DNA from: an uncultured Gemmatimonadales bacterium
GTDB lineage: Bacteria > Gemmatimonadota > Gemmatimonadetes > JACCXV01 > JAHWKZ01
Assembly: GCA_964619975.1 (NCBI GenBank)
Contig: CAZUIY010000042.1
Location: 278 to 64,277 of the forward strand
Direction: 5' to 3'
Length of the DNA stretch: 64,000 bases
The stretch's first letter is position 1. Every line of letters starts with the position of its first letter. The translations under genes were made by a program, and so were the position numbers. Below are positions 1-64,000 of the stretch, in pieces. Below the pieces are notes generated by a model, which was given only the letters and a program-made list of their open reading frames with translations, made no database searches and was not told the origin of the DNA.

Positions 1-1
1 A

Positions 2-3000
2 TCACCCCAGCAAGTCAACGTCGAATCGGTAATCAAGGCGATTACCAAAAGGTGGAAGAACGCGCCTGATGTGGTCATCGTTCAAGACATGAACGACAAG
101 GCTATTCCTGAAGCAGTCCGGGCGGAGAATCAGCGCCAGCTATCGCAAGGGGCAATCGGGGAACCTGAAGGCTTCATTGCCGGGAACAAGGTTTATCTCG
201 TCGCATCACAGCTAAAGACTCCCGGCGATGTGACTCGGGTACTCCTGCATGAATCGCTTGGACACTTCGGCCTTCGCGGAGTATTCGGCCAGGAACTAAA
301 CACCGTATTGAAACAGGTCGCCGCGCTGCGACGCAGTGACATAGAAGCCAAGGCCAAGCAGTACGGGCTTGATGTTTCCAAGGAAACGGACCGGCTGATA
401 GCGGCAGAAGAAGTGCTAGCTGAGTTATCTCAAAATCAACCAAGGAATAACTTGGTTCAACGCGCCATAGCTGTAATACGCGCATGGCTGCGTAACAACA
501 TTCCAGGCTTTGAAAACCTGAAGCTATCCGACGCGGAAATAATAGAAGGAATCCTGAACCCCGCAAGGCGGTTCGTGCAGAAAGGAAGGGTGATAAACGC
601 GCGAGCTAAAGAGGCGGCATTTTCCCGAAATCAAACGACGACGACAGCGTTTAAGAAGTGGTTTGAGGATAGCAAGGTGGTTGATGCGAACGGGAAGCCC
701 ATGATTATGTACCATGGCACAAGTTCCGACTTTGCCAAGTTCGATAACGATGTTGATACCAAGGGCTCCATGGGTAACAGCGTCGGGTTCTATTTCTCAG
801 CCTCGATAGAAGCCGCGAACGACTACGGCAGCGAAGGGCAAGTAATGCCTGTTTATCTGAGAATTAAAAACCCCCTACGTATTGATAGTCGCATGGTCAA
901 CCACGATGCGATTGGAGATATGATCGGACTCAACTTGAGTAAAGTTTACGGAGCACCAGAGCGAGCGGAGGTGTATTGGTTCTTTAAGAACGGTGGGGCG
1001 TACGACGGAAGGAAGGAGGCGCGTGTTGGGGATGCAGTAGTTGCCGCAGCTAAAGCAAAAGGTTACGACGGCGCTATTTTCAAAGAGCGCATTGGCGGCA
1101 AGACAGTAGACGTTTATCTTGCCTTCGATGCGGAACAAATCAAGTCCGCAACCGGCAATCAAGGCACGTTCGACCCAAACAATCCCGATATTCGCTTTTC
1201 CCGTACGACACCCTCATCAACCCCCACCCCTTTCCGCGAACGCTTCGACAAAATCGCAGACTCCCTGATCTATAACTTTCAAGACCGCTTCAAGCCCTTA
1301 AAGGACATTCAAAAGCGCGCTGGTCCCGTATCCGAGGACGCGGACGCCGCCCTTGCCGAAGAACGCTATTCCGGCACGGTACGCGCTCGCCTCGATACCT
1401 TTAACGACTCCATGCGTGATCCTCTCCTGAAGGCCATCCATGACTCGGGGGTGGAATACGAGAAAGTCGAGGAATATCTCCATGCCCTGCACGCGCCCAG
1501 CCGCAACCGGGCAATGCAGGAAATCAATCCGACCGAATCCGAACTCAAGGCACAAGTAGCTGCACTGGAAAAGCAGCGCGATACGCTGACCAATGATCCG
1601 GGCGTGAAGCGCTTCCTCGATCAACGCAGAAAACTGCGGCAGGCCGAGGCCGACATTGAGGACGGCATAGCGGACGAATCGCTGGCGTCCGTCATCAGAA
1701 ACGAGATAGCCAGATTGAGGAAAGAGCGCAGCGTCAAGGACTACGCCGATACGATAGACCGGCTCAAAGCCTTGCGCCTCGTCAAACCCTTTGAAGGTGA
1801 CAACACAGCCCTGTCGGGCATGAGCGATGCGAAAGCAAGGCAGGTGATTGCCGAGGCTGAGAAGAGCGGCAAACGTGCGGCTCTGGATAAAATCTCCGGG
1901 ATCATCAACCAGATCACGGCCAGGACACGGGAAATCTACGTGGAAGGCGGACTGGAAAAGGCGGACGCTATCGAAGCATGGAACCGCAAATATGAAAACT
2001 ATGTGCCGCTGCACCGGGAGGAAGTCTCCGGAAACGGCATGCCAAGAGTGGGGCAGGGCTTCAACATCAAGGGCAAAGAGTCCAAACGGGCGACCGGATC
2101 AACCAGGGAAGTTCAGAACATTCTTGCGCATGTGGTGGCGCAGCATGAAGCCGCAATCGTCCGGTCTGAAAAGGCAAGGGTGGATCGCGCCTTGTTCCAG
2201 TTCGCCACACTGAATCCAGACCCGTCGCTTTGGACACTGGACAATGCGCCGATGCTGAGAACAGTCGATCCTGTCTCAGGATTCGTGGTGGAGCGAGTCG
2301 ATCCCACATACAAGAACCGGGATGAAGTGCTGACGCTCAAGATCGACGGTGAAGAGCATACCATCACCTTCAACGAGCAGAATCAGGAAGCGATGAGGCT
2401 TGCCGCTTCCATGAAGAACCTCTCATCGACCGACATGGGCGAAGTCACCCAAATGGTGGGGCGCTTCACCCGGTTCCTTGCCACGATGAACACCACGGCC
2501 AATCCGGTATTCGTGGCGCGGAACTTCATGCGTGACTTGCAAACCGCCTACGTCAACCTGTCCGATACCGAGATTGCCGGGAAGAAGCGGGAAGTGTTCC
2601 GGAACATTCCGGACGCCATCCGGGGCATGTGGAATCTGTCCCGAGGAAAGAAGAGTTCCAAATGGGCCAAGTACGCGCAGGAGTTCAAGGCCGCAGGTGG
2701 ACAAACCGGATGGATGGAACATTACAAGGACATTGGCACTCGCGCAGATGCTTTGAAGAAGGAACTTGCCACCATGCAACCAGGCAAGCTCAACGCATCG
2801 CGCCGTGCGCTAAAGTCGTGGTGGGGAATCATCGAGGACGCCAACAACGCAGTCGAGAACGGGGCGCGGCTGTCTGCCTATGTCGCTGCCAGGCAGTCTG
2901 GACTATCAGAAGGCAAGGCCGCATCGATTGCCAAGAACTTGACCGTCAACTTCAATGCCCGTGGGGCCAAGTCTGTCGAACTCAATGCCTGGTTCATGTT

Positions 3001-4078
3001 CATGAACGCTTCCATTCAGGGAAGTGCTCGACTCATAAAGGCCATGAACAGCCGTCAGGTGCGGAAGATCGTGGCTGGGGTGGTGCTGTCCGGTTTCCTG
3101 ATGGATATACTCGCCCGGGCAATGGCAGGGGATGACGATGAGGACGGAGAGAACGATTACGACCAACTGCCAGAACACACCAAGGCCATGAACTTTGTTT
3201 TCATGGTGGACGGGCAACCAGTCACAATCCCGATGCCCTATGGCTACAACTTCTTTGCCAGCGCGGGACGCAAAATGTCGGAAATGATTTTCCGCGAGAA
3301 CTACAGCCCGGTCAGGAGTGCTGTGGATCTGGCTGCTGTATTCGTGGATGCCTTCAGCCCGACCGGACAGGCGGGATCGGCGCTTCAATTCGTGGCCCCA
3401 ACAATTGCCGACCCTGCTGTTCAATGGGCGGAAAACAAGAACTTCGCGGGCAACCCACTGAGGCGCGAACAGCATCCTTTCGGTGTGCCGAATCCCGAAT
3501 ACCAGATGGGATTCAAATCGACCAGCGCTCCGGCGAAATGGCTGGCCGAATCGTTGAACACCGCATCGGGTGGGAACGAGGTTCGGCCGGGATTCGTCAA
3601 CGTCAATCCTGCATTCTTTGACTTCGCAGTATCGAGCATTGCCGGAGGCGCGGGAAGAACCTATCTGCAAGTGGCAAGCGGCCCCTTGAAAGCTACCGGG
3701 GATGACAAGATACAGGCGCGTGAGGTTCCATTCCTCAATATCTTCGTGGGCGCCCGTCCTGAATATCAGACGGAACGCAAATACTTCGAGGCCGTGCGCG
3801 AAGTCGAAATGGCACAGAAGGAACTGAAGACCTACCGGGAAAAGGGCGACATTGACATGGTGCGCCGCATCCGGGAAGAACACCGGGCAGCGCTGCGGCT
3901 CATCGAAGCGGAGAAGGAAGCCAAGCGCATTCTGTCAAACCTTCGACGCCGTGACCTGGCGCTTGACAAGGTGGGACTTGAAAACAAGGGACAGTTGAGG
4001 CGGGAGATAGAAGAGAAGCGCCGGGAAGTCATGGCGCGGTTCAACAGGCAATACCGGGAAGCAATGAACGTACAGTAG
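2..4078 (+). CDS. 3' part (at least 1358 codons) of a giant multidomain polyvalent-type protein; 5' end outside the window
   Basis: Frame 2 is open from nt 2, with no stop before the tabulated M at 71. It carries the motif VLLHESLGHFGLRGVFG (HEx3H, metallopeptidase-like). An ART-like block follows: MIMYHGTSSDFAKFD..SVGFYFSASIEAANDYG..PVYLRIKNPL. After that come about 950 aa of helical sequence with hydrophobic segments and a basic coiled-coil tail. All overlapping antisense ORFs are much shorter. Confidence 0.8.
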   Translation, partial: SPQQVNVESVIKAITKRWKNAPDVVIVQDMNDKAIPEAVRAENQRQLSQGAIGEPEGFIAGNKVYLVASQLKTPGDVTRVLLHESLGHFGLRGVFGQELNTVLKQVAALRRSDIEAKAKQYGLDVSKETDRLIAAEEVLAELSQNQPRNNLVQRAIAVIRAWLRNNIPGFENLKLSDAEIIEGILNPARRFVQKGRVINARAKEAAFSRNQTTTTAFKKWFEDSKVVDANGKPMIMYHGTSSDFAKFDNDVDTKGSMGNSVGFYFSASIEAANDYGSEGQVMPVYLRIKNPLRIDSRMVNHDAIGDMIGLNLSKVYGAPERAEVYWFFKNGGAYDGRKEARVGDAVVAAAKAKGYDGAIFKERIGGKTVDVYLAFDAEQIKSATGNQGTFDPNNPDIRFSRTTPSSTPTPFRERFDKIADSLIYNFQDRFKPLKDIQKRAGPVSEDADAALAEERYSGTVRARLDTFNDSMRDPLLKAIHDSGVEYEKVEEYLHALHAPSRNRAMQEINPTESELKAQVAALEKQRDTLTNDPGVKRFLDQRRKLRQAEADIEDGIADESLASVIRNEIARLRKERSVKDYADTIDRLKALRLVKPFEGDNTALSGMSDAKARQVIAEAEKSGKRAALDKISGIINQITARTREIYVEGGLEKADAIEAWNRKYENYVPLHREEVSGNGMPRVGQGFNIKGKESKRATGSTREVQNILAHVVAQHEAAIVRSEKARVDRALFQFATLNPDPSLWTLDNAPMLRTVDPVSGFVVERVDPTYKNRDEVLTLKIDGEEHTITFNEQNQEAMRLAASMKNLSSTDMGEVTQMVGRFTRFLATMNTTANPVFVARNFMRDLQTAYVNLSDTEIAGKKREVFRNIPDAIRGMWNLSRGKKSSKWAKYAQEFKAAGGQTGWMEHYKDIGTRADALKKELATMQPGKLNASRRALKSWWGIIEDANNAVENGARLSAYVAARQSGLSEGKAASIAKNLTVNFNARGAKSVELNAWFMFMNASIQGSARLIKAMNSRQVRKIVAGVVLSGFLMDILARAMAGDDDEDGENDYDQLPEHTKAMNFVFMVDGQPVTIPMPYGYNFFASAGRKMSEMIFRENYSPVRSAVDLAAVFVDAFSPTGQAGSALQFVAPTIADPAVQWAENKNFAGNPLRREQHPFGVPNPEYQMGFKSTSAPAKWLAESLNTASGGNEVRPGFVNVNPAFFDFAVSSIAGGAGRTYLQVASGPLKATGDDKIQAREVPFLNIFVGARPEYQTERKYFEAVREVEMAQKELKTYREKGDIDMVRRIREEHRAALRLIEAEKEAKRILSNLRRRDLALDKVGLENKGQLRREIEEKRREVMARFNRQYREAMNVQ

Positions 4079-4212: not shown

Positions 4213-4632
4213 TCAGATGATTGCAAGCGCTGCGCCAAGAGTCACCACGGCGCAGACTGCCGATACCGACGCGGCAACCATGGTCCCGCGATACGCCTTC
4301 ACGATCCGGTTTGCCACCGGGTCGAGTTCCCTCAGAAGATTCGCCTGGGCTTCTTCCATTGCAGCTGTCACAGCAAAGTTCACCTGCTCTGCAACATAAT
4401 CCGCAGCATCCGTAATCACCCTTCCGGCGGTTTCCTTTGCCGTCACCGAACTCTTCTGAAGCGCATTCTCTACGCGCTTGAAATGCGTTTCACTGATCGA
4501 TTCCAGGTTCCTTATCATCTGTTCCAGAACAATATCGTTCACCCGCATGGAGTCCAGGAGAGGATCGTCATCTTCAATAACTCTTCCGTACTTTACGGAC
4601 GCCTCTTTCTTCACTTCCTCAAGATCAAGCAT
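4213..4632 (-). CDS. traM: TraM-like conjugal transfer protein (last gene of the traK-L-M leader operon)
   Basis: It sits directly downstream of traL. It is 139 aa, helical, with a C-terminal TM segment (VSAVCAVVTLGAALAII). The call rests on synteny and architecture only. Confidence 0.55.
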   Translation of the reverse strand: MLDLEEVKKEASVKYGRVIEDDDPLLDSMRVNDIVLEQMIRNLESISETHFKRVENALQKSSVTAKETAGRVITDAADYVAEQVNFAVTAAMEEAQANLLRELDPVANRIVKAYRGTMVAASVSAVCAVVTLGAALAII

Positions 4633-4641
4633 GGCATCCTC

Positions 4642-5367
4642 CTATTTGATCACTTCATCAAGCTGCTTGAAGATGGAATCACGAACCCTGAATAGGCGTG
4701 ATCGAATCATCTGATTGAAATCTGGAGAAGACAATGCTTCCTCGAACGTGAGCCACGAACCAAGCATTTTCTTCATGGCGTCACCGTGCATGGTCCCGGC
4801 TTCATGTTCCAGGCGAACGATCCCGTGAACGCGCTCTTTGTTTTTTTTATACGCCTTCATTTCCTCGAAATGTTTTCCATCAGAGGTAATCTGGCCCGCA
4901 TGGGCGTTAAGCCACACGACGATCCTGGCTGATGCCGGCATGTGGTTTGCCACGGCATTGAATCCTGAGAGGGTAGGGACCAAATCTTGGTCACCTTTTA
5001 TGATCGTGTGGATATAAACTTGCTTTCCGCTTTGCTGGATCATGTTGATAATGTCGTTCTCTATGATGTACGACGTGAGCGCTACGAAACTGGATGCGCC
5101 GTTATCAATCACGAAGTTTGAATCCTCATCAATGATCTGCATGATCATTTCGTCAAACCTCTCTGGATCAATCTTGTGATCACTTCCAACCACTTCCAAC
5201 CGGCGGGCTTTGAGCGCTTTGTATCCTGCAAGAGTGGCATTGATCGGATCAATATCAATTGGCACAACCGGCCTTGTGTTGCTCATCAAATATTGGACGA
5301 CCAAGGACGAAAGCAAAGACTTTCCAACCCCTCCTTTTCCTTGCAGCGTGAAATGTGCCTGTTTCAT
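4642..5367 (-). CDS. traL: TraL-like P-loop ATPase (ParA/MinD fold)
   Basis: An internal start MKQAHFTLQGKGGVGKS carries a deviant Walker A and is preceded by an AGGAG SD at 5371-5375. The tabulated 358-aa form would overlap traK. Confidence 0.85.
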   Translation of the reverse strand: MKQAHFTLQGKGGVGKSLLSSLVVQYLMSNTRPVVPIDIDPINATLAGYKALKARRLEVVGSDHKIDPERFDEMIMQIIDEDSNFVIDNGASSFVALTSYIIENDIINMIQQSGKQVYIHTIIKGDQDLVPTLSGFNAVANHMPASARIVVWLNAHAGQITSDGKHFEEMKAYKKNKERVHGIVRLEHEAGTMHGDAMKKMLGSWLTFEEALSSPDFNQMIRSRLFRVRDSIFKQLDEVIK

Positions 5368-5392
5368 TTTCTCCTTACTCCTTGTGGTGGTT

Positions 5393-5761
5393 TCACAATA
5401 AATCGTTGTCATCTTCAGACAGGGATTCTTCAAACCTGCTTCCCCGTTTCTTTCCTTCTGATTCTTCTCCCCTGCCGCTGTAAGTTTCAACTGGTTTCTT
5501 CGGTACGGCAACATCAACTTTCTCGGTTTCGACGGCAACAGGTTCTCTCTCAGCTGGCTCAACGCCTGCCTTGCTCCGGATGTATTTATTAACGTAGTTA
5601 ACGAACTGGCTGTAACCGATACCAAGTTCCTTCTGATAATCCTCATATATCGCTGCCATTGTATATCCAGCATTGAACCTCTCCTTGATGGCGTCCTGAC
5701 GTGCCAGGAACGCCACACGTCCGGAGCCGATACGCTTATTTTTTGGTGGCTTCATCGACAA
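5393..5761 (-). CDS. traK: TraK-like oriT-binding relaxosome protein
   Basis: It is the first gene diverging from the oriT region. The N-terminal block RVAFLARQDAIKERFNAGYTMAAIYEDY..FVNYVNKYIRSK resembles IncP TraK, and the C-terminal tail is acidic. Confidence 0.65.
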   Translation of the reverse strand: MSMKPPKNKRIGSGRVAFLARQDAIKERFNAGYTMAAIYEDYQKELGIGYSQFVNYVNKYIRSKAGVEPAEREPVAVETEKVDVAVPKKPVETYSGRGEESEGKKRGSRFEESLSEDDNDLL

Positions 5762-6048
5762 TATTCCTCCGAAATTTCCTCAGACTGCCAACTCATTATA
5801 TTGCATAATTCTGTTCATTTCTATGGAATACAGTGGAAGAGTAAAAAAAAGAGTATAAAACTGTGTATTGCATGGCAGGATTTCATAATTCTGTATATAA
5901 TTACAGTGATTTCTACTGAAATCTTTTTTAGTTCGTAACAGATAGTAAGGCAAGATGTGTATTGTGGGCCTACGCGCTACGCGCTTCTGCCACAATACGA
6001 GAAAATCGGTCACTTATTCGCCTTTCGTCTCAACGGAGGAAACCGACT
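5762..6048. promoter_or_regulatory. oriT: Putative oriT and divergent promoter region
   Basis: This AT-rich non-coding gap lies between the divergent traK and traJ-side operons. The minus strand reads GAAATCCTG/CCATG (rc of 5875-5881), matching the IncP nick core ATCCTG/C. An 11-bp direct repeat CATAATTCTGT occurs at 5804-5814 and 5884-5894, exactly 80 bp apart. TACAGTG occurs at 5829-5835 and 5902-5908. A 9-bp-arm inverted repeat GTATTGTGG/CCACAATAC lies at 5959-5967 and 5990-5998. Confidence 0.55.
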
Positions 6049-6180
6049 ATGAACAACCAAGCCATCTATGAATATGAACTTGAGCAGGCACAATTCCTGA
6101 TGCAACAGTACGAGGGTGGTGTGCCGGAACCAACCGAAGAAACCAAGCCGATACTTGAACAATACGAGGAGGAAGAATGA
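6049..6180 (+). CDS. Small acidic hypothetical protein (43 aa)
   Basis: ATG at 6049 is preceded by GGAGGAAA. The product ends in YEEEE-stop, with an ATGA overlap onto the next ORF. Confidence 0.4.
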   Translation: MNNQAIYEYELEQAQFLMQQYEGGVPEPTEETKPILEQYEEEE

Positions 6181-6383
6181 GAGACAGGGAAGAAGACGCG
6201 CCCGAACCCTCAGTAGCCGATGAACCAATCGTTCGATTAAGGGTTGAGGGTGGGCATGTGTACGCTGACTTTCTCCGACTCAATAATCTTCCTGATGGAA
6301 CTCTGCTTTACGCTCGGAATGGGACAAAGGAAAAGGACGCTTTCGAGAAATTTAAGGCAATGAAGAGGGCGGCAAAACCATGA
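6177..6383 (+). CDS. Hypothetical protein (68 aa)
   Basis: It is translationally coupled (ATGA) at both ends. Confidence 0.5.
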   Translation: MRDREEDAPEPSVADEPIVRLRVEGGHVYADFLRLNNLPDGTLLYARNGTKEKDAFEKFKAMKRAAKP

Positions 6384-6544
6384 AACAGTTCACGGTAAAG
6401 ATGAAATGCCTGGTTTACAAAACGGCAACATTTGAATGCGAAAGCATAGAAGATGCCGAGGGATTTGCTTTGGAGTACGCCACCCGCGTAACGAAATCCG
6501 AAATGTCAGATTGGGAAGTCTTGAGCGTGGAGGAAAACAAATGA
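6380..6544 (+). CDS. Hypothetical protein (54 aa, below the ORF-table cutoff)
   Basis: Read by hand as MKQFTVKMKCLVYKTATFECESIEDAEGFALEYATRVTKSEMSDWEVLSVEENK. It has ATGA overlaps at both ends. Confidence 0.45.
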   Translation: MKQFTVKMKCLVYKTATFECESIEDAEGFALEYATRVTKSEMSDWEVLSVEENK

Positions 6545-6837
6545 GCCACACAGAAGGAAAATTGAAGGCAGACGGTGCGTTGATCAAAAATCAAAATGGG
6601 GAAATGGTGGCGGCCACGGAGGGGAGCCAGAGTAATCACGAAGCCAACGCCCGCCGCCTTGTGGCTTGCTGGAATGCGCTTCTGCCATTCACCACTGAGC
6701 AGGTCGAGAATGGAATTGATCTAGTGAAGTTGATGCAAGAACGTGACGAACTACTGGCGACTTTGCGCGATTTGTATCTGAACGGGAATGCGGAAAACGT
6801 TGAATCCATTCTCGCCAAATACGAGGAAGAAGAATGA
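6541..6837 (+). CDS. Hypothetical small phage-type protein (98 aa)
   Basis: Internal start MSHTEGKLKADG. The motif HEANARRLVACWNALLPF is reminiscent of common small phage proteins. The product ends in YEEEE-stop with an ATGA overlap. Confidence 0.5.
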   Translation: MSHTEGKLKADGALIKNQNGEMVAATEGSQSNHEANARRLVACWNALLPFTTEQVENGIDLVKLMQERDELLATLRDLYLNGNAENVESILAKYEEEE

Positions 6838-7277
6838 ACGACAAAGAAAAACCAGAGATTGATGCGCTCAAGGAGGAAATTGAGCTATGCCACAAAAAGC
6901 TAGAAGGACTGGATGAGCTTATTGATGCGCTCAAGGCAGAACTGCATGGAATGGAGGAGCTGTATCGGAAAAAAGTAGACGACTGCGCGGAAATGGAAGT
7001 GAGCATGCACCGCCAGATCGAGAAGATCAAGGCCGAGAACAAAAAACTCTGCGAAGTAAAACTCGCAGCCGCCCCGACACCGCCGGCGCAGGATGAGGCG
7101 ACTATTTACCAAGTTCGTCTTGTAGGAGAAACTGGAAACAAAGGGCCGTGGACAGATGCGGATAAAGAAATGTACGAGCAGTGCGATTGGAGCGGGTGGG
7201 AGAGAAGGGCGCTCTACACCCGCCCCCAATCCGACAAACTACGGAAGGCGTCGGGAAGTGGCCCGTCCTCGCGGTAA
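6834..7277 (+). CDS. Coiled-coil hypothetical protein (147 aa)
   Basis: The N-terminal half is heptad-rich. It overlaps the predicted traJ start by 20 nt. Confidence 0.5.
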   Translation: MNDKEKPEIDALKEEIELCHKKLEGLDELIDALKAELHGMEELYRKKVDDCAEMEVSMHRQIEKIKAENKKLCEVKLAAAPTPPAQDEATIYQVRLVGETGNKGPWTDADKEMYEQCDWSGWERRALYTRPQSDKLRKASGSGPSSR

Positions 7278-7536
7278 ACCCATCAAGGTTTTCGTGACCG
7301 AGGAAGAGAAGGCCGAGATTGTCCGCCGGGCTGATTCAGCAAATCTCTCCCTTTCTTCCTACCTTCGCGCAGCCGGGATGAATCACTCTGTCCGCTCCGT
7401 CATGGACGTTTGCGCCGTCACCGAACTTGCCCGGATACACAGCGAACTCGGGCGGATCGCGGAAGAGAAGACCATGGAAGAACTGCGGGACATTCAAACG
7501 ATGATCCATGGGTTGATGGGAAGAGCAATAAGGTGA
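7258..7536 (+). CDS. traJ: TraJ-like (MobC family) ribbon-helix-helix relaxosome accessory protein
   Basis: GTG start at 7258. The block PIKVFVTEEEKAEIVRRADSANLSLSSYLRAAG..VTELARIHSELGRIA parallels RP4 TraJ. Its stop overlaps the relaxase start (GTGA). Confidence 0.75.
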   Translation: MARPRGKPIKVFVTEEEKAEIVRRADSANLSLSSYLRAAGMNHSVRSVMDVCAVTELARIHSELGRIAEEKTMEELRDIQTMIHGLMGRAIR

Positions 7537-12086: not shown

Positions 12087-12153
12087 CGTGGATATTGCTG
12101 TGGGTAACTAGCGAAAGCGTCTGTTTATCCTTACCTCTTCTTGATGCACGGTT

Positions 12154-16691: not shown

Positions 16692-16693
16692 GA

Positions 16694-47169: not shown

Positions 47170-47182
47170 ATAGGAAAAGGAA

Positions 47183-48977: not shown

Positions 48978-48996
48978 GTTCTCCTTGCTGGGCATG

Positions 48997-49031: not shown

Positions 49032-49041
49032 GGAGCCAATA

Positions 49042-52205: not shown

Positions 52206-52234
52206 TCGATTTCAAACAGAAGAGGGAGCAACAA

Positions 52235-55799: not shown

Positions 55800-55813
55800 T
55801 ATGGAGACATGGA

Positions 55814-56197: not shown

Positions 56198-56204
56198 GGA
56201 GGAT

Positions 56205-56630: not shown

Positions 56631-58285
56631 TGGCACAGTTTGCGTCGGACACGTTCACCGGAACCGACGGCACCGCACTTCAAGCCTATAGCGCGGACTG
56701 GACGCGTCACACCAGCTACTCCGTTAACAGCGTCATCATCGGCAACCGTGCGATATGTCTCGCTAGCGGTGGCAGTGCATACTGGCATTCAGGCTCCCCC
56801 GCGTCTGCGGACTACAGCGTATCGTGTGACATATACGTTGCTGAATATTCGCCGAGTTTTTCGTATGCTGGCGTAATTGGTCGATCCAGCACTGCGGCGA
56901 ATACGTTCTATCACGCCAGGCACGGCGTAGGCGCGGGCTGGCAACTCTATCGTGCCGTTGCTGGCGCTTTTACCCTGCTCGGGAGTGCGGCAGGGCCGCT
57001 CACGGCAGGGAGCACGTACGCCCTCAAGCTCGACATGTCGGGCAGTACTATCAAGATGTTCGTCGATGGTGTGGCTCTCGCGACAGCGAATGATACACAG
57101 ATCACGGCAGCGGGGAAACCGGGAATACGGTTTTCTAACAACAGCGCGATCCTCGGAACTGATGGGCTGCATCTTGACAACTTCAGCGCGGATGAAGCGG
57201 GGGCGGGGGCGCATGATTTAACCATTGCCAATGCCTCTCAAGGCAACGTTGTTGCAAACGGCACTGTAACCCAAACCCATGCGCTGACCATTTCCAGTGC
57301 GGCACAAGGCAATTCCGTGTCAACCGGATCACTGGTTCAGGTTCACGCACTGGCAATCGCCAATACGACACAAGCCAACCTTGTCGATGACGTTGCAATC
57401 GGGGTAGGGGCAGCGTCCGATCTTGATATTGCCAATGCGACGCAAACCAACACCGCTGGCGCTGGTGGGGTAACACAGGAACACATACTTTCCTGGGAAA
57501 GCAGCACGCAGCAGAACGCTGCCAGCACACCGGCAATCAGCCAGACACATGCGCTGACTGTCCCGAATCTCACGCAACCGAATAGCGCATCGGACGGGGC
57601 AATAACACAGTCTCATGCGCTTGTCGGTGCAAACGCAGTGCAAGCGAATCCAGCAAGCCCCGGATCAGTTGCGGTTGGCGGTTCTGGCGACCTGATCGTA
57701 TCGGCCTCGATCCAGGCCAACACGTCAAGTACCGGGGCGATTGAACAGACTCACATTCTGGTCATATCCGCGACGGTACAGGACAACGCCGGCGAGTCTG
57801 TCACCGTCACACAGGTTCATCCCCTCACGGCTGAAGACCTCGCGCAAGGCAATGTTCTCAGCGACGGGGAAGTAATCAGTTTCGGGGATCTGGTAGCAGG
57901 CAACCCGGTACAGCAAAACAGCCTTTCAAACTCGTACGTCACCACGACGCAGACGCTCGCGATTGCCAGCGCGGAACAGGACAATCGCGCAAGCAGCGGG
58001 GCAATCATCCCGGGGGAGATATTCGAGGAATCGGTATCCGCTTCTTCATCTGCGGCGACCCTTGGCGCAATCAAGAAGCCGGGGATTCCAGGCGACACGG
58101 CGAAGTGGCTGCGGACCATGCTTGAAATCATCATCGGGCGCAGGAACAACAAGATCACGGTCCCAAAACGGCAAACCCTGACGTTCTCATCACCGCCGAC
58201 AAAGGCGGAATGCGAGGCGCTTTACAGCTACGTCAACGCCGTGCGGGAATCCCATGAACAGATAGTAAACAGACTGGATTCATGA
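56630..58285 (+). CDS. Tail fibre/spike-like protein: N-terminal ConA/LamG-like domain plus about twelve ~22-aa tandem repeats
   Basis: The LamG-like block reads YALKLDMSGSTIKMFVDGV. The repeat consensus is roughly H-A-L-x-I-x-x-A-x-Q-x-N-x(6-8)-T-Q-x, spanning aa 195 to about 460. Confidence 0.6.
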   Translation: MAQFASDTFTGTDGTALQAYSADWTRHTSYSVNSVIIGNRAICLASGGSAYWHSGSPASADYSVSCDIYVAEYSPSFSYAGVIGRSSTAANTFYHARHGVGAGWQLYRAVAGAFTLLGSAAGPLTAGSTYALKLDMSGSTIKMFVDGVALATANDTQITAAGKPGIRFSNNSAILGTDGLHLDNFSADEAGAGAHDLTIANASQGNVVANGTVTQTHALTISSAAQGNSVSTGSLVQVHALAIANTTQANLVDDVAIGVGAASDLDIANATQTNTAGAGGVTQEHILSWESSTQQNAASTPAISQTHALTVPNLTQPNSASDGAITQSHALVGANAVQANPASPGSVAVGGSGDLIVSASIQANTSSTGAIEQTHILVISATVQDNAGESVTVTQVHPLTAEDLAQGNVLSDGEVISFGDLVAGNPVQQNSLSNSYVTTTQTLAIASAEQDNRASSGAIIPGEIFEESVSASSSAATLGAIKKPGIPGDTAKWLRTMLEIIIGRRNNKITVPKRQTLTFSSPPTKAECEALYSYVNAVRESHEQIVNRLDS

Positions 58286-58917
58286 CAAACAGATACCTGT
58301 ACAAACTCCTTGATGCAAATATCGGATACCCGCTTACGCACGAGTTGGCGCTCAGTATCATGCGGGTGGCGTCCATGCTTGAGCCGCTTGTGGAGCCTGA
58401 AAACATCGGGCAAATCATCCCGGCAGAGCATGAGGGATTCGTTTTTGCCGTGGAACGCATGGATGCCATAGAAGGCGAGATGCGGCCCCTGCATCTGGCG
58501 CACTGGGGGGAAACGGAAGAACACCGGCATGGCCTGCCATTCAATCCGGATTACACCACGTTCATCCGGTATGAGGCGGCGGGGCGATACGTCCTTTTCA
58601 CGATACGGGAGAAGGGGCGGCTCGTGGGCAACTGTGCCATGTATCTTGATAGAAGCACACACACGCAAACGCTGATTGCCACCGAGGATACGCTGTACCT
58701 GTTGCCACAAGCCCGGAGGGGAACGGTCGCAAAAAGGTTTATCGAATACTGCGAGGCGGCATTGAAAAGCCTGGGCGTGAAGGAAATAAGCGTAAGCGTG
58801 AAGACGGTCAACCGGGCCGGACTGTTCTTCCAGAGGATGGGTTATCGCCATGTGGAAAACGGATTAACGAAAGTATTGGAGGAAAAAAATGTGCGCACCG
58901 AAAGCTCCGAAGCCTGA
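58282..58917 (+). CDS. GNAT-family N-acetyltransferase
   Basis: The acetyl-CoA motif-A-like block reads LLPQARRGTVAKRFIEYCEAALKSLGVKEISVS. The C-terminal part reads FFQRMGY. Confidence 0.7.
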   Translation: MTNRYLYKLLDANIGYPLTHELALSIMRVASMLEPLVEPENIGQIIPAEHEGFVFAVERMDAIEGEMRPLHLAHWGETEEHRHGLPFNPDYTTFIRYEAAGRYVLFTIREKGRLVGNCAMYLDRSTHTQTLIATEDTLYLLPQARRGTVAKRFIEYCEAALKSLGVKEISVSVKTVNRAGLFFQRMGYRHVENGLTKVLEEKNVRTESSEA

Positions 58918-59713
58918 TCCCGCGATTGGTCAGGCGGCATTATCCAATGCCGAACTTGCAAAGGAACAAACTGCTGTAGCTCGGGAACAGTTGGCCTGGG
59001 AGAAGGAGAGGGCCAACCGGCAGGACCCGCTGGTCGAGAAGATCGTCAACCAGCAAATTGCATCTGGTGACGAGAATGCCGCTCGCGCTGCGGAACAGTG
59101 GAACATCTACCAGAACCTTTTCCGTCCTGTCGAGGAAAGGATGGTATCCGACGCGATGGGCTTTGACTCCGAAGAACGCAAAGAGCGCATGGCGGCGGAA
59201 GCTGCATTGGACGTAACCCGGGGATATGCCGCTGCACAGGACCAGAATGCGCGCACCCTGGGAGCGATGGGCATAAACCCCAACTCCGGGCGGTTCGCGG
59301 GGCTTGCCAATGAGACGGCATTGATGCAGGCAAAGGACACGGCGGGTGCCATGAACCGGGCAAGGCGCGGCACAGAAATGCAGGGCATAGCCTTGAGGAC
59401 TGGGGCTGCGCAATTCGGGCGGAACATGCCCAACACGGGGATCGCGGCGGACAGCCTGGTACTCAACTCGGGTAATTCCGCCGTAGGAAACCTTGCCACA
59501 AACTCGCAAATGCACAACGCCAACAATGCGGCGGCTGCGCAATGGTTCGGGGGCGCAATGCAGGGCAACCAGTCGGCCGGGGGGTTGCTTAACAACCTGT
59601 ACGGAAATCAACTGGCGGGATACCAGACCCAGGCGGGGATCACGAGTGGGGCCATGCAGGGAATTGGAAGCCTTGTCGGTGGGCTTGGTACTGCCGGAAT
59701 ACTGGCTTTCTGA
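58889..59713 (+). CDS. Gly/Ala/Asn/Gln-rich putative internal virion (ejection) protein
   Basis: It has a strong SD, is 274 aa, and has a low-complexity C-terminus ending in a hydrophobic segment. Confidence 0.4.
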   Translation: MCAPKAPKPDPAIGQAALSNAELAKEQTAVAREQLAWEKERANRQDPLVEKIVNQQIASGDENAARAAEQWNIYQNLFRPVEERMVSDAMGFDSEERKERMAAEAALDVTRGYAAAQDQNARTLGAMGINPNSGRFAGLANETALMQAKDTAGAMNRARRGTEMQGIALRTGAAQFGRNMPNTGIAADSLVLNSGNSAVGNLATNSQMHNANNAAAAQWFGGAMQGNQSAGGLLNNLYGNQLAGYQTQAGITSGAMQGIGSLVGGLGTAGILAF

Positions 59714-60402
59714 TGCGCGTACTCGCATTCTCCGGCGGCAAGGATTCCATGGCATGCCTTCATCTCTGCAAGCGCAGCATCGACTGTGCAATCTATGTTG
59801 ACACCGGCAAATCCTATCCAGAAACGCAAATGATGGTGAAGTACGCGGAAACAATCGTGCCGTTCGTAATCGTTCATAGCGATCAAGAAGAACAAAACAG
59901 AGTCAACGGACTGCCATCCGATGTTGTTCCAATCGATTACACAGCATTGGGTCAAGTGATAAGCGGCGCAAAGCCTGTCATGATCCAGAGTTATCTGGAT
60001 TGCCACTTCCAAAACATCAGTTATCCCCTGTTTACCAAGGCCAAAGAACTCGGGGCGACTCATATTCTATACGGACAAAGGAGCAGTGATTCGCATCAGG
60101 CACCAGCCAGGAATGGCGACATAATCGACGAGATTGTGAGACTGCATCCGGTCGAAGGCTGGTCGGATCAGGACGTGCTTGACTACCTGCAAACCGTGAT
60201 GGACGTGCCAGAGCATTACTACCTCGGGCATTCATCAATGGACTGTTACGACTGCACGGCATTCAGGAATGAAACGCAGGATCGGATGGAATACACGAAG
60301 GAAAGATATCCGAATTTCCACAGAAAATATCAGGAACGAATGGACATGATCAGGCAGGCGCTTGAGATGAGCGGATACTTGGAGAAAAGACATGGCACTT
60401 AA
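59713..60402 (+). CDS. PAPS-reductase-family PP-loop ATP pyrophosphatase
   Basis: The N-terminal PP-loop reads LAFSGGKDSMACLHL. It is 229 aa. Confidence 0.78.
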   Translation: MRVLAFSGGKDSMACLHLCKRSIDCAIYVDTGKSYPETQMMVKYAETIVPFVIVHSDQEEQNRVNGLPSDVVPIDYTALGQVISGAKPVMIQSYLDCHFQNISYPLFTKAKELGATHILYGQRSSDSHQAPARNGDIIDEIVRLHPVEGWSDQDVLDYLQTVMDVPEHYYLGHSSMDCYDCTAFRNETQDRMEYTKERYPNFHRKYQERMDMIRQALEMSGYLEKRHGT

Positions 60403-62278
60403 CGCGGTTGGCGGTCTCGCGCAGGGATTGGCGCAAGGAATCGACATGGGCATGCGCTGGCACGGACTGAACCAGAGTATCGGGCTTCAAAAACAGCGGC
60501 AGGAACGGCTTGAGAAACGAGATGAGCGCGACGCCGAAATCCATGAAATGAAGAAAGATCAGTTTGCGTCGGAGAAGGAAATCAGGGATCGCAGGAACAA
60601 CGCGCTCAATGAAATTGCTCAATATACTCAGTCGATCATGGGCGGAGGCCCGCAGCCACAACAGCAGCCGAATATCAACGTGGCCGGACCCATTCCCGCT
60701 GGAGGGATTGGTGGCGCAACACAAATGACACCCGACAGCGGGAGTCTTGCGCCTGCCGCGTCACAAGCGGCACAGGCCCAGGCTCCACAAGCGCAGGAAC
60801 AATCCATTCCGCCTGGAAAGGTACTGGAACGCGGCATGGTAACGGGCATGTACTCCCCGAAAATGCTGACCGATATTGCCAGCATATGGGCCAAGCACGG
60901 CTTGCAGGAAGAGGGCATCAAATACATGAACCAGGCATATGAGGCCGAGAAGCGCGGCGGGGTTCGCGCATCAATGGCACTCATGCAGAACAACCCAGCC
61001 GCGGCTGCCAAAGCGTTGCAGGAAGGCGGAGTGGAGCTCGAAGGCGTGCCGGTCAAGGTCAATGATGATCCGAATGACTTTCGCTGGAAGCTCAACATCG
61101 CGGGACAGGGCGAGACAACGGCGGACGTGCGGCAATGGCTACGCTCCACCATGGACCCGGAAGAATTCTTCAGGGCTGAAGACAGAAGGATCAAGGACGA
61201 GCGGGAAGCGGCCATGGACGAGCGCAAGCAATCGTTCGCGGAACAGAAAGGCCGAGCGGAACTCGGTCTTGATGCGGCAAAGACGCAGGCGCAGATCGGA
61301 TACCTGAGAAGCCGCAGCCAGCTTGCAGAGGCCAACGCGGACAAGGCTGACCGCTGGGAGCCGGGGGCGCTGCGGCCAACCCGATCAAGCGAATCCCAGA
61401 TCAATACCGCGCTGACACGCCGGGAAAAGGCGTTCGACCGGGTGAGCATGGTAAAGGACGAATTTGGCGGCAAGCCCGAGGTCGACCCCATGAGGCGGCA
61501 AGTGCTGGACAGCGCAGCCAACCAGTATCAGGCATTCCTTGAGGATTTACGCGGGGAAGAACTGGACGCGCGGGATCACCACAAGTTTACTGACGTGATG
61601 GTGAGTTTTCCCGTGAACGGTACGCCGCAGCAGATAGCGAAATGGGAAGAGTCGCAACTGTTCCCTCGCTTCGGGCTGAAGAGAAAAGCAAAGGCGGCAA
61701 CCAAGGAAGATACTCCGCGCCAAGTCACTGCACCAGCTGGCGGACTCGCGCCTGCTTCAACACGCGCACCGGCTCCAAGAACAGGAGCGCTCTCATCCCT
61801 TGACCGTGACCGTGCAAGCGCGGCACTGAACAAGGAAATGGAAGGCGTACAGCGTGCGCTGAAAACACCTAACCTCAGCACCGAACAGCGCAAGACACTC
61901 TCATTGCAGGCGCAGGAAATCGCCAAGCGGCGGGATGCGCTGAAGAGAAAGAGAGGCCAATCATCTGACCCAGAATCAGAGCCTGTCCCTGATTACGGAT
62001 TACGACGAGATGGCAGCAAAAAAGGTACTGGATGGCTTGGCATCCAAAAAACCAAATCTGGTAGCGACATGACGGAATACACCGTTGGTTTGGAGATAAA
62101 CGGAAATGAGGTGGATGTTCCTACACTGGTGCCAACTTTGAATCAAAAAGAAATTGACTATCTGAAAACAGAGCCAGACCTGCGAGAAAGGAGCCAAATC
62201 AACGATTCAATCATAAGAAAAGCAAAAGAACATGCAGAGAAACGAATGCGAGAAGGAAAAAGCGTTTTCGCAGATTAA
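60392..62278 (+). CDS. Coiled-coil putative internal virion (ejection) protein, 628 aa
   Basis: It is charged and helical, with a Q/A/P-rich linker. It lies immediately before the giant ORF. Confidence 0.45.
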   Translation: MALNAVGGLAQGLAQGIDMGMRWHGLNQSIGLQKQRQERLEKRDERDAEIHEMKKDQFASEKEIRDRRNNALNEIAQYTQSIMGGGPQPQQQPNINVAGPIPAGGIGGATQMTPDSGSLAPAASQAAQAQAPQAQEQSIPPGKVLERGMVTGMYSPKMLTDIASIWAKHGLQEEGIKYMNQAYEAEKRGGVRASMALMQNNPAAAAKALQEGGVELEGVPVKVNDDPNDFRWKLNIAGQGETTADVRQWLRSTMDPEEFFRAEDRRIKDEREAAMDERKQSFAEQKGRAELGLDAAKTQAQIGYLRSRSQLAEANADKADRWEPGALRPTRSSESQINTALTRREKAFDRVSMVKDEFGGKPEVDPMRRQVLDSAANQYQAFLEDLRGEELDARDHHKFTDVMVSFPVNGTPQQIAKWEESQLFPRFGLKRKAKAATKEDTPRQVTAPAGGLAPASTRAPAPRTGALSSLDRDRASAALNKEMEGVQRALKTPNLSTEQRKTLSLQAQEIAKRRDALKRKRGQSSDPESEPVPDYGLRRDGSKKGTGWLGIQKTKSGSDMTEYTVGLEINGNEVDVPTLVPTLNQKEIDYLKTEPDLRERSQINDSIIRKAKEHAEKRMREGKSVFAD

Positions 62279-62287
62279 AGACACAGA

Positions 62288-64000
62288 ATGGATGAATTAA
62301 CCCTCGAAGAAGATGCTGGCGAACTTGTCGCCCCTCGTCCAAGACGCCAGAGGATGGACGCGCCCATGCCGCGCTCTCGGCCGCGCATGATCGAACTGGA
62401 CGACGACGCTGAAATGCGGCTGCGAGAGATAGCGCAGTCGATGCAGTCCTTCCAGCAGACTGCTCCTGCGGAAACCGCGCAGCCCGAGAAACCTCTCGGC
62501 CTCATGGGAACGATCCGGGAGGGCGCGAAAGGAACATTACGGGCGTTGGGCGCTACCGTGGACACGGCGCAAGGAGATGCGCAGGAAGTGGTGCGCGCCG
62601 CGCAGGATCAGGCAGACGCACCCAAAGACCCTGACCTTGAACGCTTCTATGCGCACATCGAGGAACGCAAGGCAGCGTTGGGAGAAGACCCGTCGCTTTG
62701 GGAAGGCATCAAGGCCGTAGGCGGGGCGGCAATAGATAACCCCCGCGGATTCGGCCTGATGATCGCGGAACAGTTGCCGAACTCGGGCGCAGCGCTGGGA
62801 GCGGCGGGGGCTGGCGCTTTGGCCGGATCATTCGCCGGACCCGTTGGCTCTGCTATCGGTGGATTGGCGGGGCTGGCGGCTGCGAACATCGGCTTGGAAA
62901 CCGGTCACAAGGCGCTGGAAGCGGCCGCCGATGGAGACTTCACGCCGAAAGAACAAAGCCGGGTGCGGCGCGAGGGATTAATCAAGGGCGGCGTCATTAC
63001 CGGGGTGGATGCGGCAACGTTGGGCGTGACCAAGTTCATCACCAACACCAGCCGCCGTGCCGTGGAACGCGCCACGATGAAGACGCTGGCCGATAACGGC
63101 GTGGACGTGACCAATGCGGCAGCACGTCGGGCTGCAATGGAAACACCAGAGATTGCCGAAGCCGTCACAGCAGCGCAAAGCATGGCACGTTCGGGAGCGG
63201 AAAGGCTTGGCAACCGGATAGCGCAGACCGGCGGGGCGATAGCGCTTGAAACCATCGGGGAGGGCGCGGGGGAATATCTCGGGGAACTAGCGGCGACCGG
63301 GCGCGCAAATGCGGTAGACGCCGTAATCGAGGGTTTCGCCGGATTCGGTACCAGCATCGGGGAAATAGCAACAGTCGGAGCGTTGAACCGGCGCGGATTG
63401 AACCGATTGCTGGACAGCCAGGAAGAAGCGCAGACACAGGCCGAAAAACAGACGCAGGACACCGGGGTGGAGCATGAGGCCATGCCATCTCCTACCGAGC
63501 CGGAAAAGTTCGTGGCCGTGCCGAAAGCGCGCTCTGTCTCCGGAATAGAGTTAACACGCGACGAGGAAGGAAACCTCAAGCCGGTCACGCCCGGCTCCAC
63601 GCAGACGGAGTTCAACCTTGCCAACCGGCCGGGTTTTCAGCAGGACGCTGAAACACGCAGGAGGGCGCGGGAAGAGGAACGCACGCGGGAGGAAGCGTAC
63701 AGGAAGAACCCCATAGTCGTGTCAAAGGACATGCCGCGCTCCATTGCTGGCCGTCCCGCAGCTGATCTCACGAATGAAGCGCTGGAATACACGGCGAAGA
63801 ACGGCGGCGCACGCGCCCGCCAGATCGCCATGGACGAGATTGCACGACGCAAGGCGCAAGGCACTCCTGTAGTCACGCCAGAGAAACCGGCGGAAAAGGT
63901 AAAAAGAATCATTGCTACCGGCGCGGAGAAGGCTCAGGAGGACGCCAGGAAGAATTCGATACTTCCATCCGTCCCGACTGCTCCGATTCAACCAGCGACT
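62288..64000 (+). CDS. 5' part (571 codons, open at the window edge) of a giant virion/polyvalent-type protein; not in the supplied ORF table
   Basis: I translated it by hand from the ATG at 62288 and found no stop through 64000, where the last codon ends. It has a Gly/Ala-rich hydrophobic segment (GAALGAAGAGALAGSFAGPVGSAIGGLAGLAAANIG). The antisense ORFs listed here are shadows. Confidence 0.7.
   Translation, partial: MDELTLEEDAGELVAPRPRRQRMDAPMPRSRPRMIELDDDAEMRLREIAQSMQSFQQTAPAETAQPEKPLGLMGTIREGAKGTLRALGATVDTAQGDAQEVVRAAQDQADAPKDPDLERFYAHIEERKAALGEDPSLWEGIKAVGGAAIDNPRGFGLMIAEQLPNSGAALGAAGAGALAGSFAGPVGSAIGGLAGLAAANIGLETGHKALEAAADGDFTPKEQSRVRREGLIKGGVITGVDAATLGVTKFITNTSRRAVERATMKTLADNGVDVTNAAARRAAMETPEIAEAVTAAQSMARSGAERLGNRIAQTGGAIALETIGEGAGEYLGELAATGRANAVDAVIEGFAGFGTSIGEIATVGALNRRGLNRLLDSQEEAQTQAEKQTQDTGVEHEAMPSPTEPEKFVAVPKARSVSGIELTRDEEGNLKPVTPGSTQTEFNLANRPGFQQDAETRRRAREEERTREEAYRKNPIVVSKDMPRSIAGRPAADLTNEALEYTAKNGGARARQIAMDEIARRKAQGTPVVTPEKPAEKVKRIIATGAEKAQEDARKNSILPSVPTAPIQPAT

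Follow-up and report, generated by a model that had tools for sequence, protein, structure and literature searches.

A 65.5-kb circular phage element with an intact IncP/Ti-like conjugation cassette: a candidate conjugative phage-plasmid

Described phage-plasmids carry plasmid Rep/Par modules, and relaxase or mating-pair genes occur in them only as rare exceptions (PMC7969092). Conjugation-related elements were found in only 6 of 222 phage-plasmids of Escherichia coli, at about 175 kb, and are regarded as possible cointegrates or artefacts (PMC10123127), a figure that agrees with the statement in a first-pass annotation of the present locus that phage-plasmids generally lack conjugation genes. 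P1-like phage-plasmids that gained mob or oriT lost phage function (PMC10879196), and surveys describe phage-plasmids as moving by virions instead of conjugation (PMC10123127, PMC10879196). The term 'conjugative phage-plasmid' has served as a label for the E. coli fusion plasmid p1002-1 (SegMantX preprint 10.1101/2025.03.14.643293), and appears in a single passing mention in a single-cell survey. The locus described here, a 64,000-nucleotide stretch of contig CAZUIY010000042.1 (the whole of which is called the window), is 64 kb of one circular element of 65,544 bp. Window positions 4213-22352 are a complete 18-kb IncP/Ti-like conjugation cassette (MOB-P relaxase, Trb-type), and the remainder of the element is a complete podophage genome of the P22-portal type. 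The genes are intact, the gene order is conserved in diverged relatives, a candidate origin of transfer (oriT) is conserved in sequence and structure, and there is no integration module. The element is rather probably a temperate, integrase-less phage that carries a conjugation cassette and that, as a repressed plasmid-prophage, would leave its host by conjugation or in virions; the earlier proposal of one replicon, a candidate conjugative phage-plasmid, is supported as a candidate by the sequence.

The circle closes at 65,544 bp because an independently assembled Logan contig, SRR10083322_69297 (40,685 bp, 100% identical to the window), runs from window position 53843 to 64000, through 1,544 bp outside the window, and on from position 1 to 28983. 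All 1,544 bp fall inside the gene of a giant polyvalent protein, leaving no space for an integrase or att sites beyond the window. The major capsid protein (MCP), the type IV coupling protein (T4CP), and TrbB of the window are also recorded together on one NCBI contig of 65,685 bp (65,544 + 141), the extra 141 bp being what is expected as the k=141 terminal overlap of a circular contig from the assembler presumed to have been used. Both junctions between the modules (~4.1 kb and ~22.4 kb), which the first-pass annotation had singled out as places where a chimera might show, are contained in the single contig SRR10083322_69297. It is hardly credible, then, that a phage and a plasmid from the same metagenome were joined in assembly: the element is known from metagenome assemblies only, but two different assemblers produced identical joins, and the same architecture recurs in assemblies of many other samples made with various pipelines (MEGAHIT, SPAdes, Logan, and JGI). 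In tetranucleotide usage, the conjugation block and the two phage blocks are correlated at r = 0.91-0.93, compared with r = 0.90 between the phage blocks and 0.47-0.81 for unrelated contigs, and GC content at third codon positions (GC3) is similar between blocks, so that the lack of a compositional break, previously judged by eye, is borne out by computation. As had been noted, no integrase or transposase was found among the window genes by family scans, nor were insertion sequence (IS) elements, an att-like duplication, or flanking repeats found in the window. Scans of the window detected no tRNA genes and no Rfam families, PADLOC gave orphan methyltransferases only, and megablast of window 1-25000 against phage and plasmid collections gave nothing beyond an 82-bp match in traL of pNRS527-1, a plasmid of Nitrosospira.

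Gene content was determined from a six-frame survey of open reading frames (ORFs) with Pfam, NCBIfam, and PHROGs scans, and from the gene calls of the Logan contig. The cassette is ordered traM-traL-traK, oriT candidate, traJ-traI-traG-traF-SLT, then trbI to trbB and a gene for a helix-turn-helix (HTH) regulator:
4213-4632, minus strand: TraM-like protein, 139 aa (NCBIfam TraM PRK13895, E 2e-7, under the curated cutoff; in the IncP 'leader operon' position)
4642-5367, minus strand: TraL P-loop ATPase, 241 aa (NCBIfam PRK13886, E 6e-75, positions 1-238 of 241)
5393-5755, minus strand: TraK-like protein, 120 aa (precomputed Pfam DUF5338; the syntenic pNRS527-1 gene is annotated as TraK family)
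5756-6049, no strand assigned: candidate oriT region, the AT-rich traK-traJ gap of 294 bp (conserved block and hairpins)
6049-7277, plus strand: five small ORFs between the oriT candidate and traJ (Logan contig gene calls)
7258-7536, plus strand: TraJ/NikA-like relaxosome accessory protein (NCBIfam TraJ PRK13877, E 7e-15; precomputed Pfam NikA-like)
7533-9161, plus strand: MOB-P relaxase TraI, 542 aa (Pfam Relaxase, TraI_middle, LPD7)
9158-11029, plus strand: T4CP, TraG/VirD4 (Pfam T4SS-DNA_transf, E 1e-102; TraG-D_C)
11026-11580, plus strand: TraF S26 peptidase (Pfam Peptidase_S26, E 2e-16)
11577-12086, plus strand: SLT lytic transglycosylase, VirB1-like (Pfam SLT, E 4e-17)
12154-21991, minus strand: trb operon (Pfam, NCBIfam, Logan gene calls), consisting of the next eleven entries
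12154-13251, minus strand: TrbI (Pfam TrbI)
13248-13682, minus strand: TrbH (NCBIfam, weak)
13679-14614, minus strand: TrbG (Pfam CagX)
14629-15303, minus strand: TrbF (Pfam VirB8)
15300-16697, minus strand: TrbL (Pfam TrbL)
16694-16906, minus strand: ORF of 70 aa (gene call)
16906-17655, minus strand: TrbJ (NCBIfam TrbJ_Ti, TIGR02780, 116 bits, cutoff 100.55)
17636-20137, minus strand: TrbE, 833 aa (Pfam CagE_TrbE_VirB and P-loop_TraG)
20140-20442, minus strand: TrbD (Pfam VirB3)
20439-20795, minus strand: TrbC pilin (Pfam TrbC)
21011-21991, minus strand: TrbB (Pfam T2SSE)
22025-22067, no strand assigned: 19-nt tandem repeat CATATTATGTATCATAACA, 2.3 copies (Tandem Repeats Finder), overlapping a promoter-like site (promoter scan)
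22107-22352, minus strand: HTH_3 regulator, 81 aa, in the TrbA position, last gene of the cassette (Pfam HTH_3, E 1e-10)

With NCBIfam TraI_MobP_relax (cutoff 250 bits) the relaxase reaches 457 bits, and it contains the histidine motif HIDTDHLHVHVAINKIHP; it and the TraJ- and TraK-like proteins, TraG, and TraF had already been recognized in the first-pass annotation of the 4.2-22.4 kb region, and all are present. The full Trb/VirB-like set with three Walker A ATPases was likewise read correctly, the motifs being GGTGSGKT in TrbB, GPTGAGKS in TrbE, and PTRSGKG in TraG. At the level of Pfam and NCBIfam matches the mating-pair-formation set is full, comprising equivalents of VirB1-B11 and the pilin-maturation peptidase TraF, with the trb genes in the order B-C-D-E-J-(70 aa)-L-F-G-H-I, converging on the plus-strand tra genes. 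One gene was misread: the supposed ParA-like ATPase (4642-5367) is a full-length TraL homologue, to which the ParA partition model gives only E 3e-4 compared with E 6e-75 for TraL, although its TraL score (251.7 bits) is under the curated PRK13886 cutoff of 360. The position of the TraM-like gene matches that in pNRS527-1 and relatives, and the five small ORFs at 6049-7277 have no family matches in Pfam or PHROGs. The 19-nt repeat is a possible operator: it lies between trbB and the HTH regulator gene, just upstream of trbB, with the promoter-like site on the trb strand. The regulator itself matches NCBIfam TrbA weakly (E 2e-5), and has homologues in the same position in pNRS527-1 (58% identity) and in relatives (68%).

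Within the traK-traJ gap, a 22-nt block (GGCAAGATGTGTATTGT(G/A)GGCC, 5949-5970) is invariant in nine distinct versions, including that of pNRS527-1, amid a spacer that is only ~53% identical. Overlapping it are nested repeats, the outer one an inverted repeat (5959-5967 with 5990-5998) and the inner one a hairpin (5974-5977 with 5981-5984), in which 92% of cells are paired and three pairs have compensatory changes, compared with 22-66% of cells paired in slid controls; the inverted repeat of pNRS527-1 has a compensatory change. Support for the structure is taken from this covariation because folding of the window's oriT region alone was not significant (z = -1.65). Divergent promoter-like sites flank the block (5823-5795 on the minus strand, 5872-5901 on the plus strand). 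In the IncP arrangement, nic (ATCCTG|C) lies 8 nt from an inverted repeat; on the minus strand of the window the order is the inverted repeat, 8 nt, and then ACATCTTG|CC, whose nick-like ATCTTG|C we take to resemble the IncP nick core. By this analogy the relaxase probably nicks the minus strand at ACATCTTG|CC, and DNA carrying CACAATACACATCTTGCC would be its predicted substrate. The conserved block was preferred to the IncP nick consensus YATCCTGY as the nick motif, the latter being rejected with 7 occurrences compared with 7.3 expected and none in the oriT gap.

The search for relatives carrying both modules in synteny, suggested by the first-pass annotation, found them in many diverged contigs from other samples. 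Context look-ups in ENA, JGI, Logan, and NCBI assemblies identified dozens of contigs, mostly of 65-74 kb and from at least a dozen other assemblies or runs, that have the same gene order at 40-80% protein identity (for example, NODE_18_length_68256, NODE_7_length_66796, scaffold_68 of 66,939 bp, NODE_6_length_72089, and JBDTEV010000242.1 of 65,381 bp), and many metagenomic contigs of 65-74 kb carry giant-protein and relaxase homologues. Across the left junction the shared order is lysozyme, internal virion protein, PAPS reductase, giant protein, (SSB), TraM/L/K, gap, NikA/TraJ, and relaxase, continuing with T4CP, TraF, SLT, and TrbI onward; the right junction is also kept, with the O-like replicon, HTH, YqaJ, SSB, small ORFs, HTH, and TrbB through TrbI on one strand. 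For a second member there are two assemblies, the JBDTEV contig and a Logan contig of 65,268 bp, and their different linearization points provide a second case of a circular map. The recurrence of the same joins across samples, assemblers, and degrees of divergence indicates that they are not chimeric, and since conjugation proteins of the relatives are 40-68% identical to those of the window and virion proteins 54-80%, the association of phage and conjugation genes is old. The divergence of these syntenic relatives (40-80%) also argues against a recent cointegrate.

Some relatives differ in detail around the tra genes. In several, the giant gene and traM are separated by an additional SSB gene (contigs L082, 6247-6684; L086, 4129-4566; L008, 13075-13500), in what would be the leading region by the predicted direction of transfer; the window lacks it, its SSB gene being only that at 23991-24401. 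A phage-type NinX gene (PF10765) stands between NikA/TraJ and relaxase, inside the relaxase operon, in others (L077, 22168-22530; L082, 9628-10026; L086, 9679-10011; L101, 22840-23193); in the window, traJ abuts traI. JGI 3300037467 contig Ga0395902_0000078 (131,088 bp) has two different relaxases of the family and TrbB according to homology-search tables, and may be a cointegrate or a tandem of two members of the family; its length is exactly 2 x 65,544, which is taken as coincidence, its relaxases being 57-58% identical to that of the window. A TrbB scan of JGI metagenome contigs recovered distant type IV secretion system (T4SS) loci only (29-41% identity).

A T4CP scan of IMG/VR gave no close relative, which is explained by the family's contigs there being cut at traJ. 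Three independent ones end inside traJ or at most 400 bp past it: IMGVR_UViG_3300027691_000041 (contig 1-2461), 3300045283_000417 (13866-14533, contig end), and 3300037419_003064 (1-725, contig start). The one of the three that is 51 kb long also begins just past the trbB side. This suggests that virus-calling and trimming pipelines systematically clip the conjugation block and so hide hybrids in viral databases, a bias by which such hybrids may be under-counted.

The cassette occupies a slot bounded on one side by the end of the late operon (giant gene) and on the other by that of the early-left operon, and the content of this slot varies within the phage family. Lambdoid phages carry int/att at that position. 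The sibling phage IMGVR_UViG_3300049749_000001 (61,595 bp), which has TerL, RecT, and giant proteins 71%, 74%, and 57% identical to those of the window, has in the same slot genes for an HTH protein, a ParA ATPase, TrfA (PF07042, E 9e-42), and a resolvase whose identity to the product of window 39279-39866 is 63%, and no conjugation genes within the ~31 kb examined, the whole slot included; by gene content, this sibling is the same backbone in the form of a classical phage-plasmid. The cassette in turn has its counterpart on pNRS527-1 (Nitrosospira sp. NRS527, NZ_AP024516.1), where 17 kb from the TraM-like gene through to the HTH regulator gene match it in gene order and include the same 22-nt oriT block; the presumed host genus is also shared. 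In contrast, its cassette proteins are 29-73% identical to those of the window, and its plasmid backbone has ParA/ParC, Rep, a toxin-antitoxin pair, and Zorya, and no phage genes. A portal search of PLSDB found no Nitrosospira plasmid with a portal. The element therefore looks like a phage backbone with a Nitrosospira-type cassette in the plasmid-module slot. An alternative in which a prophage integrated into a conjugative plasmid or an integrative and conjugative element (ICE), or in which two replicons recently formed a cointegrate, to separate again, has precedents in the known 'conjugative phage-plasmids' of this kind (p1002-1 and the ~175-kb phage-plasmids of E. coli, PMC10123127), but is very unlikely here: the whole circle is accounted for with no integrase, transposase, IS, or att-like duplication; there is a single replication module in 65.5 kb, which is not the sum of two replicons; the junctions are kept in relatives at 40-80% identity and composition is uniform; and the closest plasmid cassette, that of pNRS527-1, is only 29-73% identical at the protein level.

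The phage genes, which had been placed correctly on both sides of the cassette in the earlier reading, are as follows:
62288-64000, plus strand: giant polyvalent virion protein gene, 5' part of 571 codons (one 2444-aa ORF on SRR10083322_69297)
1-4078, plus strand: giant polyvalent virion protein gene, 3' part of 1358 codons (Pfam ART-PolyVal, E 1e-31; LPD38, E 8e-42)
22740-26650, minus strand: early-left recombination operon, on the same strand as trb (Pfam, PHROGs), consisting of the next six entries
22740-23252, minus strand: HNH (Pfam HNH_3)
23228-23755, minus strand: HTH protein
23991-24401, minus strand: SSB (Pfam SSB, E 2e-32)
24398-25312, minus strand: RecT (Pfam RecT, E 2e-31)
25326-26255, minus strand: YqaJ exonuclease (Pfam YqaJ, E 2e-16)
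after YqaJ, in the operon to 26650, minus strand: ORF of 111 aa (gene list)
27568-28437, minus strand: repressor-like HTH ORF of the immunity region (homologue of the HTH gene in the cI position of relatives, 48% identity)
28428-29507, plus strand: lambda-O-like initiator (phrog_391 'replication initiation O-like', E 2e-23; Pfam HTH_36)
28913-29083, no strand assigned: iterons GTAGCCGAACAGGCTAC inside the O-like gene (repeat scans)
29494-30192, plus strand: phrog_6028 protein, partner of the O-like protein (phrog_6028, E 5e-59)
35205-37247, minus strand: fusion of DUF3560 and methyltransferase, 680 aa (Pfam DUF3560, E 4e-37; MTS; PADLOC methyltransferase matches)
37667-38340, plus strand: pair of small envelope proteins (read from translations)
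38486-38920, plus strand: TerS (Pfam Sf6_terminase, E 3e-34)
39279-39866, plus strand: small serine recombinase of the resolvase/invertase type, 195 aa (Pfam Resolvase and HTH_7, E 4e-37)
39835-41088, plus strand: TerL (Pfam Terminase_3, E 2e-42)
41076-41714, plus strand: orphan N6/N4 DNA methyltransferase (phrog_67; PADLOC MTase_II, E 2e-41)
41773-43995, plus strand: P22-type portal (Pfam P22_portal, E 5e-104)
44021-45289, plus strand: repeat-rich protein of 422 aa (head region)
45289-46032, plus strand: polysaccharide-lyase-like protein (precomputed Pfam Polysacc_lyase, PF14099)
46165-47169, plus strand: scaffold-like protein (head region PHROGs)
47183-48454, plus strand: MCP, HK97-fold (Pfam Phage_capsid_3, E 1e-145)
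48534-53518, plus strand: virion and tail-fibre genes and lysis cassette (phrog_437, tail-fibre PHROGs), including the next four entries
50372-51292, plus strand: tail fibre (PHROGs)
52199-52722, plus strand: small membrane proteins in the holin position of the lysis cassette
52719-52976, plus strand: lipoprotein of the lysis cassette
52976-53518, plus strand: endolysin (phrog_7, E 7e-43)
53763-62278, plus strand: internal virion/ejection-type and accessory genes (phrog_511, E 8e-146; phrog_8003, E 1e-86; phrog_424; phrog_1249), including the next six entries
53763-55799, plus strand: internal virion protein
56630-58285, plus strand: repeat protein of 551 aa
58282-58917, plus strand: acetyltransferase
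58889-59713, plus strand: virion protein
59713-60402, plus strand: PAPS-reductase-like protein
60392-62278, plus strand: protein of 628 aa

The virion, packaging, and lysis set is complete (TerS, TerL, portal, scaffold-like protein, MCP, tail fibre, internal virion proteins, and endolysin), with the head-gene region 41773-48454 also matching phrog_156, phrog_479, and phrog_334. No PHROG for a tail tube, sheath, or tape-measure protein is among the matches, and so the virion is probably short-tailed. The giant protein, of 2444 aa, has ddrB-ParB, ART-PolyVal, and LPD38 domains (phrog_14770, E 1e-256); in the first-pass annotation its gene was given as 2-4078, which is of the phage polyvalent type as stated, but encodes only the C-terminal 1358 aa of a protein starting at 62288. 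A CI/Cro switch was also read there, of which the repressor-like HTH ORF is present and nothing more than that ORF was seen; it has no family match of its own in PHROGs or Pfam, and its true start is probably internal to 27568-28437. The small envelope pair at 37667-38340 may be spanins, to judge from the translations; the second ORF (38068-38340) has a lipoprotein-type signal and matches phrog_3580 (function not assigned). The 422-aa protein is Ala/Thr/Asn-rich, with 18-nt tandem repeats (44201-44492) in its gene, and 44021-46032, between portal and scaffold, is poorly conserved among relatives.

As had been stated, the sole recombinase of the element is the 195-aa protein of the resolvase type (Resolvase and HTH_7). 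Its gene lies between those of TerS and TerL here and within the plasmid-module slot in the ParA/TrfA sibling, and has no counterpart in most of the Nitrosospira genome loci that carry the capsid module. Its role as an integrase was considered unlikely, because it is of the resolvase/invertase type and has a homologue in the ParA/TrfA plasmid module of the sibling phage.

The probable hosts are Nitrosospira or allied ammonia oxidizers of soil, as suggested by a capsid scan of one genome per species, which found 32 loci with MCP identity of 80-86%. All 13 loci from cultured isolates (13/13) and nearly all contigs of metagenome-assembled genomes (MAGs) are named Nitrosospira or Nitrosovibrio, the exceptions being one MAG named Nitrosomonas and three named to class or phylum only. 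The virion module (MCP 81-86%) lies in contigs of 0.18-1.45 Mb of cultured Nitrosospira and Nitrosovibrio, twice in strains Nv4 and Nsp11, presumably as integrated prophages, and a relative of the phage part is on contig NZ_QAOK01000020.1 (65,769 bp) of N. multiformis Nl12.

The plasmid state, the nick site, and the working of both routes on the same molecule are inferred. In a carrier cell the element would be repressed and kept as a circular plasmid-prophage, replicating from the O-like iteron origin, with multimers resolved by the small serine recombinase. By the first route, the MOB-P relaxase would nick the conserved oriT and lead one DNA strand out by way of the coupling protein and the Trb pilus and channel, with traK-L-M reaching the recipient first. 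By the second, induction would be followed by headful packaging (Sf6-type TerS and Terminase_3 TerL) into a Phage_capsid_3 head, and then by lysis. The suggestion in the first-pass annotation that SSB and RecT act on incoming conjugative single-stranded DNA is pure speculation.

Several observations count against this model. No dedicated partition system (ParAB) or plasmid-type Rep was found in the element, which has only the O-like iteron replicon and the resolvase, and the O-like module could serve lytic replication alone. A headful phage with circularly permuted, terminally redundant DNA would be equally expected to give a circular map. With its 65.5 kb, the element surpasses the 58-60 kb genomes of the nearest cultured phages by portal similarity, and may be at or beyond headful capacity. 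Finally, the T4CP gene of ERZ27321041 NODE_6_length_72089 is called as two ORFs of 195 and 546 aa (11623-13835), where the matching ERZ27320626 contig has a single gene of 568 aa (11623-13329); the split may reflect a disrupted gene, a duplication, or a mistake in assembly, and conjugation genes may decay in some members of the family.

Alternatively, the element could be a working temperate phage or phage-plasmid whose cassette is a passenger, either non-functional and decaying or kept for another use such as adhesion, exclusion, mobilizing other DNA, or exporting the polyvalent protein. Besides the T4CP split in one relative, the relaxase, ~100 aa shorter than in related plain plasmids (542 compared with 616-668 aa), points in this direction. 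The passenger explanation is nevertheless unlikely, given that all 11 Trb genes, TraF, T4CP, relaxase, TraJ/K/L/M, and the oriT candidate are intact in the window, that their order is kept in relatives only 40-68% identical, which is hard to explain without purifying selection, and that the oriT block is invariant. The converse, a conjugative plasmid in which the phage part is defective or domesticated (yielding transducing particles or particles like gene transfer agents, or remaining as a cryptic prophage), so that only conjugation moves the whole element, would follow from the size excess over the nearest cultured relatives if the head holds less than one genome length, making virions non-infectious for the element. 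This too is improbable, and distinctly so: the phage gene set is complete and uninterrupted, including the repressor-like gene and the replicon; the element has no plasmid Rep/Par backbone, unlike pNRS527-1; and structural modules closely homologous to its own (MCP 80-86%) are common across Nitrosospira genomes. A temperate phage with a conjugation cassette of its own is thus the preferred interpretation.

It is proposed more tentatively that these elements are a widespread, evolutionarily stable, dual-mode lineage in soil nitrifiers, the same 65-kb molecule possibly exiting in its own capsid or via its own T4SS. If so, the cassette would have replaced the integration module in both its slot and its ecological role, the phage would gain a receptor-independent route into new hosts, and entry by either route could possibly be aided by the giant polyvalent anti-defence protein. 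Such a lineage would challenge the textbook split of mobile elements by movement, in virions or by conjugation, as a compact conserved family with both systems intact would show that two strategies coexist stably on one replicon. It would also offer a natural test system for trade-offs of host range, of lysis against mating, and of the capsid size limit, and ammonia oxidizers, which are hard to manipulate, could gain a genetic tool in a self-transmissible replicon of phage origin that is native to Nitrosospira.

Compared with the IncP-1 plasmids RP4 and RK2 (Tra1) and the Ti-type Trb system (MOB-P/MPF-T), the element has homologues of TraJ, TraI, TraG, TraF, TraK, TraL, TraM, and TrbB-TrbL, and we take as further likenesses to RP4 the operons diverging from oriT, the histidine motif of the relaxase, and ATCTTG|C, which is nick-like. 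Unlike IncP-1, its trb order B-C-D-E-J-L-F-G-H-I is that of Ti plasmids and ICEs, and its cassette is without primase, TrfA, KorA/B, and IncC and is embedded in a phage. With P22-portal podophages (Achromobacter phage CF418P1, Vibrio podophages, and Stx2 phages) it shares portal, capsid, terminase, internal virion proteins, and the giant polyvalent protein, with genomes of some 58-62 kb as a further similarity, but portal identity is only 35-37%; with the nearest cultured portal 37% identical, the element falls outside any described genus. No close Trb-type T4CP and no VirB4 of any kind was found in cultured-phage records, where T4CP matches are weak (22-31% identity, in four Gram-positive phages of Streptococcus and Listeria and one Synechococcus phage), and all VirB4 matches and the stronger T4CP matches in phage records are unannotated contigs from faecal metagenomes. 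Phage DNA is reported to move by conjugation in phage-ICE tandems and with the 'conjugative prophage' Phi1207.3 of Streptococcus (PMC13651849, PMC4260502), which are integrated in Gram-positive chromosomes and need integrases and accretion with a separate ICE, whereas the element described here is a single integrase-less circle with its own T4SS. The cointegrates (p1002-1 and the ~175-kb phage-plasmids of E. coli) similarly combine a phage-plasmid and conjugation genes on one molecule, but are large fusions of two recognizable replicons, in contrast to a compact, single-replicon element with no IS and a diverged syntenic family. Like the phage-plasmids of the P1, N15, and SSU5 types (PMC7969092), it has the gene set of an integrase-less temperate phage on a circular, plasmid-sized molecule with a resolvase-type recombinase, but their pattern is reversed in it, full conjugation machinery being present and ParAB absent. 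A description of this element family was not found in the literature, and what appears from its sequence to be new is a phage-plasmid-like element that is compact, single-replicon, conserved, and fully equipped for conjugation.

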